32,000 nucleotides of DNA from Candidatus Thorarchaeota archaeon. Lineage in GTDB: Archaea; Asgardarchaeota; Heimdallarchaeia; Hodarchaeales; Hodarchaeaceae. This document shows, piece after piece, positions 9,666 through 30,445 of the stretch (its first letter is position 1; the number at the start of each line of letters is the position of its first letter). A program made the translations under genes and the position numbers. The stretch is from contig JBHLRO010000003.1 in assembly GCA_048882505.1 (NCBI GenBank), positions 30,001-62,000 of the forward strand, read 5' to 3'. Below the pieces are notes generated by a model, which did no database searches, was not told where the DNA came from, and was given only the letters and a program-made list of their open reading frames with translations.

Positions 9666-9943
9666 GAATTACCCATTCCCGAAAAATCTCAATCAAATAA
9701 TTGGAATTTGCCTCGATTATGCCGTAACATTGACCTTAAGTGTAGGATTTGTTGAAGAATGGAGGAATGACCTAGTAGGATTGAAAGGATAGCAAATCGT
9801 CTCCAAATCCATTCTTTTGGGAGGATTATAAGACAGGATGAGCCCAACTTCGAGAATCCCTCTTTAGAATCCGAGAAACGATAACCGATATAGTTACCTA
9901 TATATGCAGTTATAGATCGCACGCCGCATCGAGATGAAATCCC

Positions 9944-10297
9944 TTGCTAGATGATCTCCTCCTATCAAAATGGCAAACGGAGTATAAAAAAGGGTTTTCT
10001 AAACCCCTCATTCTATTCACGCTTGCCAAAATCGGGAGTAGTTATGCGTATCTTCTTACGAAGAAGATCTTGGAATTAACAAATGGAGAAATCTCAATTG
10101 CGGGTTCTAATATATATCCTATGCTTTCCAAACTTGAAGAGGACAGGTTGATTGTCAGTCAAAAAGACGAGAATGACAGAAAATACTACAAACTGAGTGA
10201 TGCCGGTAGAGAATTTTTAGAACAGTTGGAACTCTCGATCAAAGAGTTCAATGAGATAATGCTTGGATTAACCAAGAAGAATGAAGGAGATCTCTAA
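9944..10297 (+). CDS. PadR-family transcriptional regulator
   Basis: SYAYLLTKKI..LT.G, GSNIYPMLSKLEEDRLI and RKYYKLSDAGRE. Confidence 0.92.
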   Translation: MLDDLLLSKWQTEYKKGFSKPLILFTLAKIGSSYAYLLTKKILELTNGEISIAGSNIYPMLSKLEEDRLIVSQKDENDRKYYKLSDAGREFLEQLELSIKEFNEIMLGLTKKNEGDL

Positions 10298-10973
10298 GAA
10301 AATGGCCCAACAGAAGGCATTAGATCCTATTGATGGTTATTTACAGGAGGTAAGTGCCTTACTTCCCTACTCCGAGGAAAGAAAAGCTTCAATCCTTGAA
10401 GAACTAAAAAAGGATGTGGAAGATGCAATGAGAACTGAAAAACGTCCTCCTTCTGTCGTTTTTGGATCCCCCACCGAAGTAGCTAAGAATCTGAGTATCG
10501 CAAATGATTGGGGAACTACTTCCGCGAGATGGGGGACACGGCTAGTTGCTTCATTCATCGATTACGCCGCGACTCTAGGAGTCTTCATTCTGTTCGTTAT
10601 CATTCAATGGATTCTATCGGACTTTCAAATCGATGAAATAAGATGGAATTCAATGCACATCCCGTTCGGTTTACTCTTTATAGGTATTCCAATAATAGGT
10701 TTGCTTTTGAGTTATTTTATTATTCTCGAAAAAACATATTCCACAACCCTCGGGAAACGGATATTGGGTCTCATAGTTGTCGATGAATCGGGAATTAAAA
10801 TCACTTGGACTCAATCTCTAATTCGTAACTTCACCAAAGTTCCTTTTCTGACATCTTTTTTGCCAGCAGACATCATATTTGGAATAATATCAGAAAAAAC
10901 CCGTGGTAGGAAGCAGCGAGTTTTAGATTTTGTCGCAGGAACCAAAGTAATGCAACAAAAAGAACAGATATAA
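10281..10973 (+). CDS. HAAS-domain plus RDD-family membrane protein
   Basis: N-terminal IDGYLQEVSALLP...ILEELKKDV...FGSPTEVAKNL (HAAS-like), then ARWGTRLVASFID, TLGKRILGLIVV, SLIRN and QRVLDFVAGTKV (RDD). Alternative start at ATG 10302. Confidence 0.85.
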   Translation: MKEISKKMAQQKALDPIDGYLQEVSALLPYSEERKASILEELKKDVEDAMRTEKRPPSVVFGSPTEVAKNLSIANDWGTTSARWGTRLVASFIDYAATLGVFILFVIIQWILSDFQIDEIRWNSMHIPFGLLFIGIPIIGLLLSYFIILEKTYSTTLGKRILGLIVVDESGIKITWTQSLIRNFTKVPFLTSFLPADIIFGIISEKTRGRKQRVLDFVAGTKVMQQKEQI

Positions 10974-13900: not shown

Positions 13901-14400
13901 TCACAAATACTGAGGATGCCGGATATCGAAAATTGGCTAGTGATGACTTTCTAGTTGCAAGGACTACCTCTTTGTATTCGGAGGTAGAAGCCAGCTTGGA
14001 ATCGACGGTCCAGATGACATCATTCCTAACTATCTATGTTAATTTCGGATTGATTATCGGTGCTGTGGGAATGGCTGTGATTAGTGTTAGAAATGTTTCT
14101 GAAAGAAAACGAGAAATAGGGATGATGCGCGCAATAGGTTTTCCAAGATTTCAGGTTATGTTAGCCGCCCTCTTGGAGCTCTTGGTGTTAGGATTTATTG
14201 GTCTAATCATTGGTGTTGTGAACGGGCTTTTGATTAACGTGGGGTTTGCTAATATGATGGAAGTGCCGGTAGTTATCCCATGGGACACCTTAGCAGCATA
14301 TCTATCTTTAATTACCCTGATAGGTTTACTTGCAGGAGCTATACCCGGATTCATTGCTTCCAGAATACCTGCCGCGGAGGCATTGAGATACGTTGGATAA
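10984..14400 (+). CDS. ABC transporter permease with two MacB-type extracellular domains and two FtsX domains
   Basis: 1138 aa. FtsX motifs VEDREFQTGVLRAVG and VSERKREIGMMRAIG; C-termini PALRASRVNVVEALR and ASRIPAAEALRY. Many N-X-S/T sequons in the large loops. Confidence 0.93.
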   Translation: MGFRSSLLIAKRALTRRKAKNISAILAITLGVTLMVGIQITTDTLENSFLTGLLLDEGEVDIRVGNGTGNYLPMEFQNNISELVPDGKVMPELTSRGAVMAGSQFEDSVQFAGIPSEYPEIFGDFYDWNTQEKMNISDYLTDNTSVLLSSNLAEDLDIEKDSQLPITLVTEFNNQTIILLPNGTGPPIPTPIFTVEQVNLSVVGLYDSNRPGIGAQYTGLLMSLKGLQDWLSLQDFSRNSNLVSSYLISFQSDHFNTRIDPDFLQDQLDFLNETLPIGLVNGETQQLYAASSPRLLFTEIIDLVFSFMSTFLNVLGLLIVLTGVLLITNVQLMSVEDREFQTGVLRAVGEKRRGIFVSMLSETLFQGIFGGIIGLVGGLIFGQVVALYIASLFETGQFSVRPVINQTIIVFSVLIGVALGILTGLLPALRASRVNVVEALRGIKIQFEEKSGRNLVLLSLLLVIVGALILLINGVFDDSLQYIWEIKGWDSLDEWRNILLGSAILFSGLGIILSSFIDRIKAFNLTALVIWAAPVFLFVVAMGEGWIAEFSGGPFNIDVFIIAIIEVVVGSVLIVGLNLSPLMRFLRRVLMRISGVKGVAQVAPALISSHKTRSTLTFAIFAVVLTLNVVVAALVATNLSSSIGQAETDSRGIDLFVSLNKPEVVLNDTSYTKLLFNVSDSITDVIGMKTFKTRTDFTKFVALKKPGSVGYNPSTDHLPLEFVELRSDQIRGNATSAEEENWRYDSFLGSFPDGVGELSSSSGGFFGPGFGGQSDDVEALELSKKAFDAFFNSSYTMAAYNVSFSLSSLSDFDIEDFSSFFESDLEDVEKLEDENGSIIKNPIIFTDSLILPLGMQIFVPMNITFNPSTNRTEIVYQPFTIGGKFDRERTVGFALSGGGFSTRAIGDGDDQSNFLGRIYIPDRFSNYTNFFGEAGGASYSSRKPNQFDTFLIKTSYAFDDPRIEELAIKIENFTNTEDAGYRKLASDDFLVARTTSLYSEVEASLESTVQMTSFLTIYVNFGLIIGAVGMAVISVRNVSERKREIGMMRAIGFPRFQVMLAALLELLVLGFIGLIIGVVNGLLINVGFANMMEVPVVIPWDTLAAYLSLITLIGLLAGAIPGFIASRIPAAEALRYVG

Positions 14401-14413
14401 TGGAGGCAAAACA

Positions 14414-15157
14414 ATGATAGAAACAATTGTGGAAGATCCAGATTTTGTTGAGACAGAACCAATCCTCTATATCACAGATTTGCATAAACGTTATAATGAG
14501 GGAAAATCGAATGAAGTGCATGCTCTCCGTGGATTAGATCTAGAGGTAAAAAAGGGTGATATGATGGCGATAATGGGCCCTTCTGGATGCGGAAAAACGA
14601 CCCTACTTAACATGATCGGGCATTTGGATGTCAGCTCAGGTGGGACCATTGTAATCAGTGGTATTGATACTGGGGAGCTTTCCGATCGTGAGATGACTGC
14701 ATTTCGAAGAGATAACATCGGTTTCATATTTCAGCTCTTCAATTTATTCCCGTTCTTAACTGCGGTAGAGAATGTAGAAACTCCCTTATTATTAAAAGGC
14801 CTTAAATCAGGAGTCGCACGGGAACAGGCCAAAATGCTCCTGAGAGACTTAGGAATGGGGGACAGACTATATCATTATCCCTTAGAGCTTTCAGGTGGAC
14901 AACAACAACGAGTTGCAATCGCGCGTGCTTTGATTAATCAACCTGCAATTATTCTCGGTGACGAACCGACAGGAGATCTAGATAGTACCACAAGTGCAGT
15001 GATAATGGAACTTTTTCGCAGAATAAATATGATGAATAAACAGACATTTGTCCTGGTTACGCACAATCGGTGGATTGCTGAAAAATGTGATTACATTGTC
15101 CATATGACCGATGGGGTGATCTCCAACGTTGAATATGGACCTTTTGAGGAGGCCTAG
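14414..15157 (+). CDS. ABC transporter ATP-binding protein (LolD/MacB type)
   Basis: Walker A GPSGCGKT, Q-loop FIFQ, signature LSGGQQQRV, Walker B IILGDEPTGDLD, H-loop VTH. A GGAGG at 14402-14406 favours ATG 14414 over 14393. Confidence 0.95.
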   Translation: MIETIVEDPDFVETEPILYITDLHKRYNEGKSNEVHALRGLDLEVKKGDMMAIMGPSGCGKTTLLNMIGHLDVSSGGTIVISGIDTGELSDREMTAFRRDNIGFIFQLFNLFPFLTAVENVETPLLLKGLKSGVAREQAKMLLRDLGMGDRLYHYPLELSGGQQQRVAIARALINQPAIILGDEPTGDLDSTTSAVIMELFRRINMMNKQTFVLVTHNRWIAEKCDYIVHMTDGVISNVEYGPFEEA

Positions 15158-15159
15158 CC

Positions 15160-17943
15160 ATGGTAAGAGTATACACTGCAGCCTTGATAGATAAACCTTT
15201 ACGTGCCATTAATAAGAATTTACAGAAAAAGATGACTTCGGATTTGAGGAAATCTCTTAAGGTTCGGCGTGATGCAGTATCTAGTCAGGAGTTGAACACA
15301 TTCCTCCTAGTTTCAGGCAAAAACGGAAAACGCGGATTCACCCCGGAAATGATAGATAGGGTTGAAAAAGGAGCCATTCAGAAAAGACTAAAGCAATATT
15401 ACAATAGAAATGAGTCACGATTTAGGAACTACATGAAAAACAATCAAGAGTTATATGAAACCTCCCAGGTGGTAAAAGAATTCATCCGAGAGATTGATTC
15501 ATCTCTTCCGAAAAAGTTCGACCAACAATTAAAGAAAATTAACACAGAATTACCGGAAATTTTCTGCCAGATTAGTATGAAGAGTTTTATTACTTTATGG
15601 GAGATTGAAGAAAGGCAGGAATATCGTTTTAACTTGTCCGGATTTGATTTTCCCATATTTGCCGGAACAACCAATGGAACCCCATTTAATGTAGGAAGTT
15701 TAGTAGATAAGCTTCTCATTGTAAATTTCTTTGAAACTTTCTTAAAATCAACCCTCCAGCGACTCGATGATATGAATCAGGTACTGGAACGTCTCGAATA
15801 CGAACTTTCCAAGCCACACTATCAAATTAAGAACGAAAAACTACACGCCAAATTCTCTCTCTTTCTACGAATTCTGGTTGCAAAACTAAGCGCCTTACAG
15901 GAGTTAGAAAACTCGATCTTTCGGATCTTTAGTTTGTTTGATGTTCCATATATGATCCTTACTCAATATCGTTTTAAAAGCGATTTTTTGGATTTAAATA
16001 CAGAGATCGCCAGAATCTGCGAGGATATTAGTGTAGGTAAAGATAAACTCAACGAGGTAGGAAGAAAAATTGATAATTGCCAATTATCTCTTCGAGATTA
16101 TCTTGATGAAAGTAGAAATGGAGTTATAAAGACTGATTCGACCCAATTATTCAAAGATTCTCTGAAATCATTAGCAGAATTAAGTATTGATTTGTTTATA
16201 GAATCTGAAATGTTAAAACTTTGGTCGGATTATTTTGGATCAGATATTCCTTATTTTAGTTTTAATGTCCAATTAGATGAGGAAACTGAAAGCGAGGAGG
16301 ATATCCACATCGATGATGATGTTATTTTGGCTGTGAGAGGGCTCTATAAGAACTATAACCTTGGTCGTACCACCGTTTATGCAGTACGGGGAGTTAATCT
16401 CGATATTAAGGCAGGTGAATTTGTTGCAATAGTCGGCAGTTCCGGCGCAGGTAAGACAACACTATTAAACTGTATGGCCAGTTTAGATACTCCGGATCAT
16501 GGTGTCGTTTATTTTCGGGGGAGAAATCTTCACAAACTGAAAGATTCAGAGAAAGCAGACGTCCGACTTCGCGAAATGGGTTTCATTTTTCAGAGCTACG
16601 CCTTACTACCTCATTTCGACACTCGCGAAAATGTAACCCTCCCAGCAAATCTGGCAGGCGGATTAAGTAAAGGTATAAGAACCCGAATTGAGAATCTTTT
16701 GGTGGGTGTTGGAATAAGTGAACAGGCGAAACAATATCCTGCTCAGTTGAGCGGAGGTCAGATGCAACGGGTGGCAATTGCACGAGCTCTTACAAATCAA
16801 CCGGCTGTCATATTTGCTGATGAACCCACAGGTGATCTGGATTCGACCACTGGTGTTCAAGTGATGGAATTGCTAAAGAAATTCCATGAGGAAACAAATA
16901 CGACCATTGTAATCATAACACATGAGGAGAGTATTGCTAATTACGCTGAAAGGCGAATTATGATGGAAGATGGAGTAATTACGCAGCGAAAAAGGCCCGT
17001 TGATCAAGCGGGACAGCCTATCCTGATGGAAAAGCCAATGATGCCGAAAGTTGAAAGGGAACTACCTCCAATATGGGAGGAAAGAGTAAACGAAATCGAA
17101 GGAAGGTTAGAGACCTTCGAGAAGAAAAACATTGAACTATTAGGCAAGGTAGTAAAAGAAGTACAAAGACAGTTGGACGAAATAAGGGGTAACATAGAAG
17201 TTCTTGGGATTGAGACCAACAAAAAATCGCTGGATCTGAGTACAAGATTTGAACAACTAAATACTAATGCTAGCAATTGGTCATTTGCAATCAATGAACA
17301 GATGGAATCATTTCGTGCTCAATATGTTAAAGTGCTGGAAGAGCTCAGGCAATCTTCAATCAGATCGGCCGAAAAGGAAAGAATTCTTTCGCAAAAGTAT
17401 ACAGAACTCGTGGAACAATTAAAAGAAAAAGACCAGATAGCGGTTGAAAAAGGCAATCTAAATCAAGTAAGGTTCAGTGCATTACAAAAGGAGATCGAAA
17501 GGAAGGAATCAGACTTAGGAATTTATAAGGATAGATTGGAGGAGCTGGAATCTGAAATAAAGGTAAAACAGCAGCATATTGATGAATCTACTGAAATTAA
17601 AATGAAAACAGAAAACCTAGTAAATAGCTACAGAAAATTAAAGGAAGCTTATGATAATAAGAGTCGGGAAGTGACTCATTTACAGGCTCAATTAGCATCC
17701 ATGACTGAAGATACGAAGAAGATCGTTAAAAGTACCAGGGCTATAAAGGCATTCCTCGATGAGAGTGATTCAGGTCGAATCCTGTACCAACTTCTTAATT
17801 CTGAGCGTTTAAATCTAGATGAACTTGCGGTTCGGACTGGAATCGCAACATATACCGTTTACCAAATAGTTCAACACCTTCGAGATATTGGTGTAGTTGA
17901 GTTCGATAATTCCACACGCGTAGTTACATTAGTAAGCAAGTAA
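15160..17943 (+). CDS. Multidomain ABC ATPase: N-terminal helical domain, LolD-type ATPase, coiled coil and C-terminal winged helix
   Basis: Continuous 927-aa ORF. ATPase at about 16321-16980 (GSSGAGKTT, LSGGQMQRV, IFADEPTGDLD, ITH); heptad-rich region at about 17070-17750; wHTH GRILYQLL...LDELAVRTGIATYTVYQIVQHLRDIGVVEF. Confidence 0.85.
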   Translation: MVRVYTAALIDKPLRAINKNLQKKMTSDLRKSLKVRRDAVSSQELNTFLLVSGKNGKRGFTPEMIDRVEKGAIQKRLKQYYNRNESRFRNYMKNNQELYETSQVVKEFIREIDSSLPKKFDQQLKKINTELPEIFCQISMKSFITLWEIEERQEYRFNLSGFDFPIFAGTTNGTPFNVGSLVDKLLIVNFFETFLKSTLQRLDDMNQVLERLEYELSKPHYQIKNEKLHAKFSLFLRILVAKLSALQELENSIFRIFSLFDVPYMILTQYRFKSDFLDLNTEIARICEDISVGKDKLNEVGRKIDNCQLSLRDYLDESRNGVIKTDSTQLFKDSLKSLAELSIDLFIESEMLKLWSDYFGSDIPYFSFNVQLDEETESEEDIHIDDDVILAVRGLYKNYNLGRTTVYAVRGVNLDIKAGEFVAIVGSSGAGKTTLLNCMASLDTPDHGVVYFRGRNLHKLKDSEKADVRLREMGFIFQSYALLPHFDTRENVTLPANLAGGLSKGIRTRIENLLVGVGISEQAKQYPAQLSGGQMQRVAIARALTNQPAVIFADEPTGDLDSTTGVQVMELLKKFHEETNTTIVIITHEESIANYAERRIMMEDGVITQRKRPVDQAGQPILMEKPMMPKVERELPPIWEERVNEIEGRLETFEKKNIELLGKVVKEVQRQLDEIRGNIEVLGIETNKKSLDLSTRFEQLNTNASNWSFAINEQMESFRAQYVKVLEELRQSSIRSAEKERILSQKYTELVEQLKEKDQIAVEKGNLNQVRFSALQKEIERKESDLGIYKDRLEELESEIKVKQQHIDESTEIKMKTENLVNSYRKLKEAYDNKSREVTHLQAQLASMTEDTKKIVKSTRAIKAFLDESDSGRILYQLLNSERLNLDELAVRTGIATYTVYQIVQHLRDIGVVEFDNSTRVVTLVSK

Positions 17944-29566: not shown

Positions 29567-30445
29567 CTATGAACCGCTTAATCTTTTTATTCTTTCTATT
29601 CGTTCAGGTTCATTATTCACAAACCATTTATCTCGAGAAAGTAGTTCATACGCTAGTTTGAAATGCTCTTGAGCCAGTTTGTCTTCCTTTTTCAATAAAT
29701 ACAGCTCTCCAAGTTCCTCATGGTTATATCCACCCTTCCCAAGTCCGTTTTCCTCACGATGTCTGTCAACCTCCAATTGAACTTCTAATGCCCTATCTAT
29801 GTTTTTAAGTGATCTATAAACCCTGGCAACACACCACATAGCTATTGCAATTGTACCTGGATTCCCTTGGATTCTTCGGAATTCCAAAGCTTTTTGGAAC
29901 AGTTCAAGGGCTTTTTCGTACTCCTTTAGATCATGAAAACTCCATCCAGTATTATTTAATAATGATCCAAGCCAATTTCTAGTGCCCTCGTCTTTACTCT
30001 CCTCTGCAACCTTTATGGCCTTCTCATTCCATTCTATTTGCTTGATTGGATCTTTTTCAACTATTGCCATCATATGGAGGGCGTCTACTTCCAAAAATTC
30101 CTCTTTAAAATTCCTTGCCAAGTGTACAGCCTTTTCAAAACAGTTTTTGGCTTTTTCAAAGTCTTTACTAGAATTATATGTTCTCCCCCTCTCTAAGTAA
30201 TATCGTACTCTAACTTTGGCGGAAATATCATGGTTTAAAACCTCTTCCACTTCATCAAGTATCCCATGTGCTTCATCGAAGTTATATTCCAAACCAAATG
30301 TTCGTGCGATTTGAGTCTGAATTTCATATACGATATTAAAGGCCTGGGAATCCCGAGCATGTTCTAGATGGACAAGAAATTTCTGTCGGGTTTGACCTGG
30401 TTCAGAGAAATTCCAATCCTTGATAAAATCATGATAGGGGCTCAT
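29567..30445 (-). CDS. Tetratricopeptide repeat protein
   Basis: TPR motifs RYYLERGRTYNSS, DALHMMAI, SLLNNTGWSFHDLKEYEKALELFQKAL and GYNHEELGELYL. Confidence 0.85.
   Translation of the reverse strand: MSPYHDFIKDWNFSEPGQTRQKFLVHLEHARDSQAFNIVYEIQTQIARTFGLEYNFDEAHGILDEVEEVLNHDISAKVRVRYYLERGRTYNSSKDFEKAKNCFEKAVHLARNFKEEFLEVDALHMMAIVEKDPIKQIEWNEKAIKVAEESKDEGTRNWLGSLLNNTGWSFHDLKEYEKALELFQKALEFRRIQGNPGTIAIAMWCVARVYRSLKNIDRALEVQLEVDRHREENGLGKGGYNHEELGELYLLKKEDKLAQEHFKLAYELLSRDKWFVNNEPERIERIKRLSGS

Follow-up and report, generated by a model that had tools for sequence, protein, structure and literature searches.

A putative second ATPase of a type VII ABC machine in one Asgard class, fused in a Hodarchaeales-type subclade to a coiled-coil and winged-helix protein

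Why should an ATP-binding cassette (ABC) ATPase that lies among transporter genes carry a large domain of its own in front of its catalytic part, and a long coiled coil with a DNA-binding-type domain behind it? The question is raised by a 32,000-nucleotide stretch of DNA, called here the window, from Candidatus Thorarchaeota archaeon, an Asgard archaeon of the Hodarchaeales (assembly GCA_048882505.1, contig JBHLRO010000003.1, forward-strand positions 30,001 to 62,000), in which an open reading frame (ORF) at 15160..17943 (+) encodes 927 amino acids (aa) without internal stop, starting 2 bp past the stop of the gene for a 254-aa ATPase (14393..15157). The gene order is PadR, HAAS/RDD, double-FtsX permease, the plain ATPase (NBD1, after its nucleotide-binding domain, NBD) and the 927-aa protein (NBD2, or P0001), all tightly packed on the + strand, just as an earlier note made from the sequence alone had read it. 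The distance to the next gene is 420 bp, so that the long ORF is taken as the last gene of a five-gene operon. The evidence given below points to NBD2 as the second, specialised ATPase in an ABC machine of type VII (MacB/FtsX-type) that only one Asgard class (Heimdallarchaeia-type) possesses; in a Hodarchaeales-type subclade, a duplicate of a free coiled-coil/winged-helix protein was fused in frame to the end of NBD2. The account as a whole, that is, a class-specific machine with an NBD1/NBD2 motor and a regulator held at the transporter by fusion, is the one that we favour, with moderate confidence.

The domain order proposed for the 927-aa protein in the earlier note, namely an N-terminal domain (N-domain), an acidic linker (EETESEEDIHIDDD, aa 374-387), an ATPase, a Pro-rich linker, a coiled coil and a C-terminal winged helix-turn-helix (wHTH), was recovered here (Table 1), although the N-domain, described there as helical, is mixed alpha/beta in the AlphaFold 2 (AF2) model. 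No hydrophobic segment is present in the whole chain. The ATPase matches Pfam ABC_tran with 111 bits (E 7e-32), and its best NCBIfam models over aa 389-608 are LolD, MacB, YbbA, DevA, DarD and FtsE. The LolD model scores 216 bits against an equivalog cut-off of 308 and every other top model stays below its own cut-off as well, so the protein is regarded as a member of the LolD/MacB subfamily and not as an orthologue of any of them. The closest solved chains are 5xu1_A (Spr0694-type), MJ0796, LolD, MacB, BceA and YbbA, with PDB sequence matches at E 1e-55 to 1e-46, the best of them in the MacB, LolCDE, Spr0693-0695 (5xu1) and MJ0796 group. All the motifs expected of a working enzyme are in place, i.e. 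GSSGAGKT (Walker A), FIFQ (Q-loop), LSGGQMQR, ADEPTGDLD (Walker B-Glu and D-loop) and ITHE (H-loop), and they are kept in orthologues and paralogues, which bears out the complete LolD-type ATPase of the earlier reading. NBD1, which shares 44% identity with the NBD of NBD2, keeps all its catalytic motifs too, and since both NBDs show canonical motifs in all copies examined, neither ATPase site looks degenerate. A defence-system reading was discarded, since PADLOC models matched by generic ABC and wHTH similarity only.

An ABC ATPase with a coiled coil and possible DNA contact superficially resembles SMC/Rad50 and Uup, and faint SMC_N Pfam hits were obtained, so that NBD2 could be imagined as a soluble DNA or nucleoid ABC ATPase (SMC/Rad50- or ABC-F/Uup-like) merely adjoining a transporter operon. 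However, the coiled coil of SMC/Rad50 splits the NBD, and Uup, a soluble protein, has two NBDs in tandem and a short coiled coil at its C-terminus, whereas here a single and complete NBD of the LolD/MacB/MJ0796 transporter type precedes the rod, with its motifs contiguous in aa 388-612. An SMC-like architecture was rejected on these grounds. In orthologous as in paralogous modules, moreover, the NBD2 gene is joined to those of the permease and NBD1 with 2 bp in between or with an overlap, and the N-domain and ATPase core goes without a tail in most genomes, all of which makes a soluble DNA ATPase very improbable.

The permease encoded in front of NBD1 is a single chain with FtsX stretches at aa 314-435 and about 1003-1134 and four extra hydrophobic segments in between. 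Its hydropathy profile gives about 12 hydrophobic segments and two outside domains at aa ~41-309 and 637-1016 (~270 and ~380 residues), and its PDB sequence matches are Spr0695 (5xu1), MacB, YtrF and LolC. In the solved YbbAP complex, a pseudo-symmetric permease binds two ATPases (two YbbA per YbbP) via two coupling helices (PMC12646458), and on this precedent a single-chain pseudo-dimeric permease should need two NBDs. The likeness to YbbAP and BceAB extends to the LolD/MacB-type NBD and to one permease chain with two FtsX modules, and that to YbbP also to two large outside domains. However, in YbbAP and BceAB the same plain ATPase is used twice and there are 10 hydrophobic segments, whereas here two distinct ATPase genes are conserved side by side, one of them with a 370-aa N-domain (plus a 315-aa tail in the subclade), next to a permease with about 12 segments; the system is archaeal, and its scores fall so far short of the equivalog cut-offs that orthology is excluded. 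In sequence, the NBD and the FtsX modules are closest to the MacB, LolCDE, Spr0693-0695 (5xu1) and MJ0796 group, but permeases of that group are dimers of four-transmembrane-segment chains, and their NBDs are plain or permease-fused, with no N-domain, rod or wHTH.

How widely this arrangement is spread was followed through its N-domain and ATPase core (~608 aa), which is the second ATPase of a three-gene module made of a double permease, a plain NBD and an N-domain-NBD protein. The first protein search returned hundreds of proteins of ~604-625 aa, 58-70% identical over aa 1-610, whose source labels spanned several 'phyla', the nearest homologues being named Hodarchaeales/Hodarchaeota, 'Heimdallarchaeota' and Candidatus Hodarchaeum. 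Conservation across all Asgard phyla, which these source names would imply, was rejected, since genome searches place close orthologues in a single family and the domain in a single class. In a single-sequence search of 251 genomes of the phylum, matches were confined to the family-level group of the window (13 of its 16 genomes), and a profile search gave a strong match in 18 of 21 family genomes and divergent frames of 600-650 codons in four more families of the same class, so that the module is known in at least five families of this Asgard class. Outside the class, 400 genomes of the phylum yielded nothing of the N-domain except one fragment of 28 residues, in a 62-codon frame (G319:C116:4547-4630; G, L and P numbers are our labels for genomes, relative loci and proteins) of a genome with 7% contamination, which is probably a contaminant or a remnant.

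The orthologous operon of PadR, RDD, double FtsX, NBD1 and NBD2 is kept in relatives with the short form (L001, L024) and with the long form (L003) of the second ATPase. In divergent paralogous operons (L011:6480-12093, L012:8736-14333, L014:5797-11594, L015:8688-14308, L017:3391-9174 and L018:3374-9008), a permease (1012-1090 aa) is followed by a plain ATPase (228-246 aa) and an N-domain ATPase (606-641 aa), with overlapping or abutting junctions; their N-domains are 24-30% identical, and neither PadR nor RDD genes lie upstream. This divergent module is a second copy in several family genomes and the sole copy in other families of the class, while the genome of the window holds the PadR-linked copy only. 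Because the same trio recurs in the same order in divergent paralogous loci of other families, the pairing of a plain with an N-domain ATPase is old and has been kept through duplication. This old pairing, together with a single-chain permease taking two ATPases, makes a 1:1:1 complex with a heterodimeric ATPase the most economical reading, one in which a pseudo-dimeric permease chain with its two large outside domains would be driven by NBD1 and NBD2. Judged from sequence and gene order, such a heterodimer, already suggested in the earlier note, is quite probable.

The origin of the C-terminal extension was traced through its free relatives. Short forms of NBD2 end right after the last ATPase strand (..MEDGVIxx), and long forms run on into the Pro-rich linker. 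A search with the tail only (aa 618-927) retrieved free proteins in 13 clusters, each 315-362 aa long and with 41-51% identity across ~90% of the tail, which as P0125-P0137 align from the start of the rod through the conserved motif N-x-S-N-W-S-F-A-x-N-E-Q (aa 703-714 in the 927-aa protein) to the winged helix; overall, the free coiled-coil/winged-helix proteins measure ~290-370 aa and are 38-51% identical to the tail end to end. The module is present in 21 of 22 family genomes, fused in five and as one free copy alone in 16, the free genes being located far from the ABC operon, and all five fusion-bearing genomes also keep a free paralogue. In the genome of the window, this is a 292-aa ORF on another contig (L009:1432-2310), 40% identical to the tail and distinguished from it by indels of 11 and 7 residues. 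Hence the possibility raised in the earlier note, that relatives encode the parts as separate genes, holds for the coiled coil with its winged helix (16 of the 22 genomes, at a distant locus) and fails for the N-domain and ATPase, which are always fused to each other. A search among longer proteins in 5.8 billion clusters found no other fusion partner of the tail than the NBD2 ATPase.

Since the genome is a draft of 83 contigs, the long ORF might be an assembly chimera or a gene-calling artefact. The same uninterrupted fused frame (913-949 codons) was, however, seen in five independent genomes, one of them a single contig of 3.2 Mb, in no fewer than 11 distinct sequences, and also in other metagenome contigs of several origins; these independent assemblies refute an artefact, to which we give practically no credence, and with it the strain-specific or assembly fusion that the earlier note had considered. 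In the tree of N-domain plus ATPase, the long forms make one clade (Shimodaira-Hasegawa-like approximate likelihood ratio test, SH-aLRT, 100) nested among short forms, and in the tree of the tails the fused copies group into a single clade (99/96) whose sister is a free subgroup, a topology that fits one duplication followed by one in-frame fusion. Measured against the nearest orthologue at unsaturated synonymous divergence (dS 0.64-0.99), the ratio of non-synonymous to synonymous substitution (dN/dS) is 0.08 for the N-domain, 0.07 for the NBD, 0.10 for the rod and 0.12 for the wHTH, whereas among fusion members dS is saturated and the tails are 49-84% identical. Retention throughout the clade, divergence of the tails and low dN/dS show that the fusion is real, old and maintained, with all domains under purifying selection.

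In principle, a duplicated gene could have come to lie behind the ATPase gene and been joined to it by loss of the stop between them, with each part keeping its own job, which would agree with the absence of the fusion from most relatives and with a fused module that is a complete copy of the free protein on a disordered linker. But the age of the fusion, its presence in every clade member and the purifying selection on the tail (dN/dS ~0.1) speak against such a fusion without integrated function, and the fused copies form a clade of their own, set apart from the free ones by the divergence that a change of role would bring; we rate it as improbable.

Several further observations touch the junction. 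A short form that is sister to the fusion clade (P0025, L024:6001-7878) has ~18 extra C-terminal residues, KRKQTTDYAGRPILKENV, which match the start of the long-form junction linker, with no tail gene downstream; either this extension predates the fusion or the tail was lost from such forms. Frames of 624-625 codons occur also in G250, G062, G253 and G214, a similarity in length only. A split-gene origin was dismissed: in L001, neither of the two large genes that follow the short form resembles the tail, and in L024 the next gene after the 625-aa form lies on the opposite strand, so that the tail is never a downstream neighbour of the short form. An internal translation start at the invariant Met623 was likewise dropped, for it has no convincing ribosome-binding motif upstream. 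In the single-contig relative (L004:8206-11001, equal to G241:C1:511366-514155), the public annotation gives 666 aa, counted from an internal Met that aligns with Met265 of P0001; this start is probably wrong, because the frame is open over 939 codons and encodes a full N-domain.

The surroundings of the free gene differ between genomes. A Macro-domain gene comes after the free coiled-coil/winged-helix gene in four relatives (among them L005:9001-10591, L006:9001-10519 and L007:5009-6497), and in the genome of the window (L009) an acyl-CoA dehydrogenase gene takes that place, with no Macro gene. A cluster of JAB, E2 (UQ_con), E1 (ThiF) and ubiquitin-like genes lies at L005:13255-17176, a few kb from the free gene.

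What the tail looks like was modelled with AF2 from 23 sequences. Residues 637-868 form one unbroken helix of 232 residues, with a predicted local distance difference test (pLDDT) score of up to 96, which would be ~35 nm long if straight and corresponds to the ~230-aa coiled coil foreseen in the earlier note. Over aa 633-860, across the alignment, the a/d positions are hydrophobic at 0.44-0.8 (0.5-0.8 in 27 of 30 windows) against 0.05-0.24 elsewhere, and although this seam carries several register shifts, the heptad pattern identifies the rod as a coiled coil and not a charged single helix. It is followed by elements at aa 870-880, 883-885, 886-893, 897-910, 913-916 and 921-924, in the order H1-b1-H2-H3-b2-b3, and all 50 top Foldseek rows for the tail model have probability 1.0, mostly to wHTH of MarR, ArsR/SmtB/CadC, IclR, CRP and PF0095 regulators (E 2e-3 to 2e-2 for MarR, ArsR, IclR and PF0095). 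The C-terminus thus does model as a winged helix. Its best Pfam family is TrmB (PF01978; E 2.4e-4), with 21.3 bits against a gathering score of 25.6, HTH_24 and MarR_2 likewise remaining below their cut-offs. The tail family profile gave weak PDB matches to Lrp/AsnC, TFE and SmtB. In short, the domain belongs to the wHTH fold class and to no named Pfam family, and as modelled it has the fold of a DNA-binding regulator. TrmB, MarR and ArsR regulators share its topology and are its best Foldseek and Pfam neighbours, whereas here the wHTH is C-terminal to a 232-residue rod, neutral to acidic, and below every Pfam gathering score. The comparison with winged helices of ESCRT-II and CdvB drawn in the earlier note found no support: no Pfam hit to Snf7 or PspA (the ESCRT-III/CdvB core) appeared at E up to 0.1, and the rod is modelled as one continuous helix and not as the ESCRT-III/CdvB hairpin, with the limit that a monomer model cannot fully exclude a fold-back.

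A heterodimeric motor would carry a single rod, and a single rod wants a partner helix. The most likely partner would be a second fused tail, by which two transporters would be bridged; the indels of the free paralogue make full-length, in-register pairing with it less likely and slightly favour pairing between tails. Complex prediction for two tail copies scored 0.38 against a mark of 0.42, without verdict, and is taken as evidence neither way. A paired rod seems likely, at a strength somewhat short of that given to the ATPase heterodimer. It would present two MarR/TrmB-like winged helices as a pair, far from the membrane, and a pair is usual for DNA-binding regulators. The tail would then be a probable DNA-binding regulator held at the transporter, with its target, a DNA site or a partner, coupled to the location and activity of the machine. 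To judge from the modelled fold, DNA binding by the wHTH is possible, though we would not put it at even chances. The coupling would follow the 'trigger transporter' logic of MalK-MalT or BceAB-BceS, hard-wired by fusion, a regulatory link argued from analogy that we propose tentatively and as slightly more doubtful than DNA binding itself.

The last proposal has precedents of two kinds. MalK (with MalT), MetN and ModC are ABC ATPases with C-terminal regulatory domains that link transport to regulation, and as in NBD2 the extra domain past the NBD ties the transporter to regulation, but they belong to importers and carry small globular effector- or regulator-binding domains, none of them being known to have a long coiled coil or a DNA-binding-type domain. 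In the Bce module (BceAB-BceRS) and in HAAS-PadR systems, as here, the genes of a type VII transporter go together with those for a membrane signal transducer and a wHTH regulator; the HAAS-PadR dyad has been put forward as an alternative kind of two-component system, and HAAS domains fused to FtsX/MacB-PCD permeases have been noted (PMC11237479). The difference is that here HAAS sits on an RDD membrane protein, below the Pfam cut-off, and that the paralogous modules lack PadR and RDD.

A number of points weigh against a regulator held at the transporter. The net charge of the wHTH is -4 to +1, neutral to acidic, in 23 of 23 family members, which is atypical for a strong DNA binder, and protein-binding winged helices (O-methyltransferase dimerisation domains, a proteasome lid subunit) are among the Foldseek neighbours of the tail. 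The orthologous group would additionally stand under the PadR/HAAS pair, so the operon has regulators of its own and a second one is not obviously needed; most relatives do without the fusion; NBD1 and NBD2 may form two separate homodimeric complexes; and the role of the N-domain is a guess, with no fold or family match. The charge and the protein-binding neighbours, along with a strong heptad seam of the kind that oligomerising elements have, would suit a purely structural tail. The coiled coil would then be a zipper that gathers or cross-links transporters, or holds NBD2 together as a homodimer, and the winged helix would be a protein-protein module without any link to DNA or transcription. 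This is the main rival, but by fold and by sequence the nearest neighbours are in their great majority DNA-binding regulators (MarR, ArsR/SmtB, IclR, CRP, Lrp/AsnC, TrmB), and the module occurs free in nearly every family genome, which implies a primary job independent of the transporter; we consider a merely structural tail unlikely, without dismissing it. A stronger form of the favoured account, in which a 35-nm coiled coil wires the ABC machine to paired DNA-binding winged helices that tether or sequester chromosomal DNA or a transcription factor, with the free paralogues as the soluble form, seems a shade less probable still.

The N-domain belongs to no recognised family or fold. Its AF2 model (aa 1-392, 40-sequence alignment; pLDDT 88.5, predicted template-modelling score 0.84) shows a beta-sheet subdomain with a helical insertion in the first ~175 residues (strands at aa 2-9, 40-45, 48-55, 144-149, 154-159 and 166-170), a helical bundle to ~aa 360 and the disordered acidic linker. 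Foldseek against the PDB gave no match below E 0.1; exhaustive VIA-align reached at best Z 7.5, on helical fragments and within the stated noise range of the tool, its weak rows, all in that range, including the CorA cytosolic domain (Z 5.9-6.5) and a GGDEF/Cas10-type palm (Z 5.7-6.1 over aa 1-195). Among AlphaFold database (AFDB) clusters, the 608-aa member of its own family alone matched, and the ESM Atlas gave template-modelling scores of 0.25-0.32, several rows being cyclase/GGDEF_2, and no usable match in its feature search. A Pfam scan of 40 members returned nothing meaningful in any of them. A degenerate cyclase/GGDEF-like palm in aa 1-175 is only a lead. A profile search of 1.84 billion cluster representatives found 67 N-domain proteins, the complete ones of 585-658 aa or long forms, and no complete free-standing N-domain, the domain always preceding an NBD2-type ATPase; a shorter protein that was inspected proved to be a contig-end fragment with FtsX and ABC genes ahead. 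Carried on its acidic linker off the ATPase, the N-domain is probably a lineage-specific regulatory or adaptor module. A docking site for HAAS/PadR was also considered and is weakened, because the paralogous modules keep the N-domain without PadR or RDD upstream.

The coordinates of the domains and of the operon genes are collected in Table 1. The PadR gene holds the same position in the relatives L001, L003 and L024, and the RDD gene stays behind it; the RDD protein has two hydrophobic segments and its HAAS match, over aa 20-69, is weak. The start of NBD1 is ambiguous, either TTG at 14393, with an 8-nt overlap with the permease stop, or an ATG 21 nt downstream, with a 13-nt gap. About 40 nt ahead of the PadR start there is a TATATAT box (9899-9905), within the imperfect inverted repeat GATATAG..CTATATA..TTATAGATC (window 9880-9943), plausibly a candidate archaeal promoter with a PadR operator for the operon.

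Table 1. Parts of the 927-aa protein and other genes of the operon, in window coordinates.
Feature	Position	Strand	Basis
N-domain of NBD2, aa 1-372	15160..16275	+	class-specific alpha/beta and helical-bundle domain; AF2 model
Acidic low-confidence linker, aa 373-387	16276..16320	+	sequence; pLDDT <50 at aa 375-381
NBD of NBD2, aa 388-612	16321..16995	+	complete LolD/MacB-type ATPase
Pro-rich junction linker, aa 613-636, from ATPase end (..MEDGVIT) to rod	16996..17067	+	sequence; pLDDT <50
Coiled-coil rod, aa 637-868	17068..17763	+	one AF2 helix, heptad seam
C-terminal wHTH, aa 869-927, and stop codon	17764..17943	+	H-b-H-H-b-b topology, Foldseek
PadR-family wHTH regulator, operon gene 1	9944..10297	+	Pfam PadR 55.5 bits, cut-off 27
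Membrane protein with N-terminal HAAS-like and RDD domains	10281..10973	+	Pfam RDD 59.6 bits; HAAS 19.8 bits (cut-off 27)
Single-chain double-FtsX (MacB-type) permease, 1138 aa	10984..14400	+	Pfam FtsX x2 and MacB_PCD; NCBIfam ADOP duplicated permease
NBD1, plain LolD/MacB-type ABC ATPase, 254 aa	14393..15157	+	Pfam ABC_tran E 1.4e-32; LolD/MacB/YbbA best rows

Type VII ABC systems (MacB, LolCDE, FtsEX, BceAB, YbbAP) have been described in bacteria, where to our knowledge their ATPases are plain and act as identical pairs, and our literature search found no paper describing the NBD1/N-domain-NBD2 system or the fusion. The present data suggest that one Asgard class has its own type VII version with two different ATPases. 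The fusion can be read as a 'Rosetta stone', predicting that the free coiled-coil/winged-helix proteins work with the NBD2 transporter, and it offers a first clue to what two uncharacterised families of Asgard proteins do. Should the winged helix prove to bind DNA, a membrane machine would be coupled to the genome in an unusually direct way, and if the tether were true, a single polypeptide would link transport to transcription, or membrane to nucleoid, in the archaeal lineage closest to eukaryotes.

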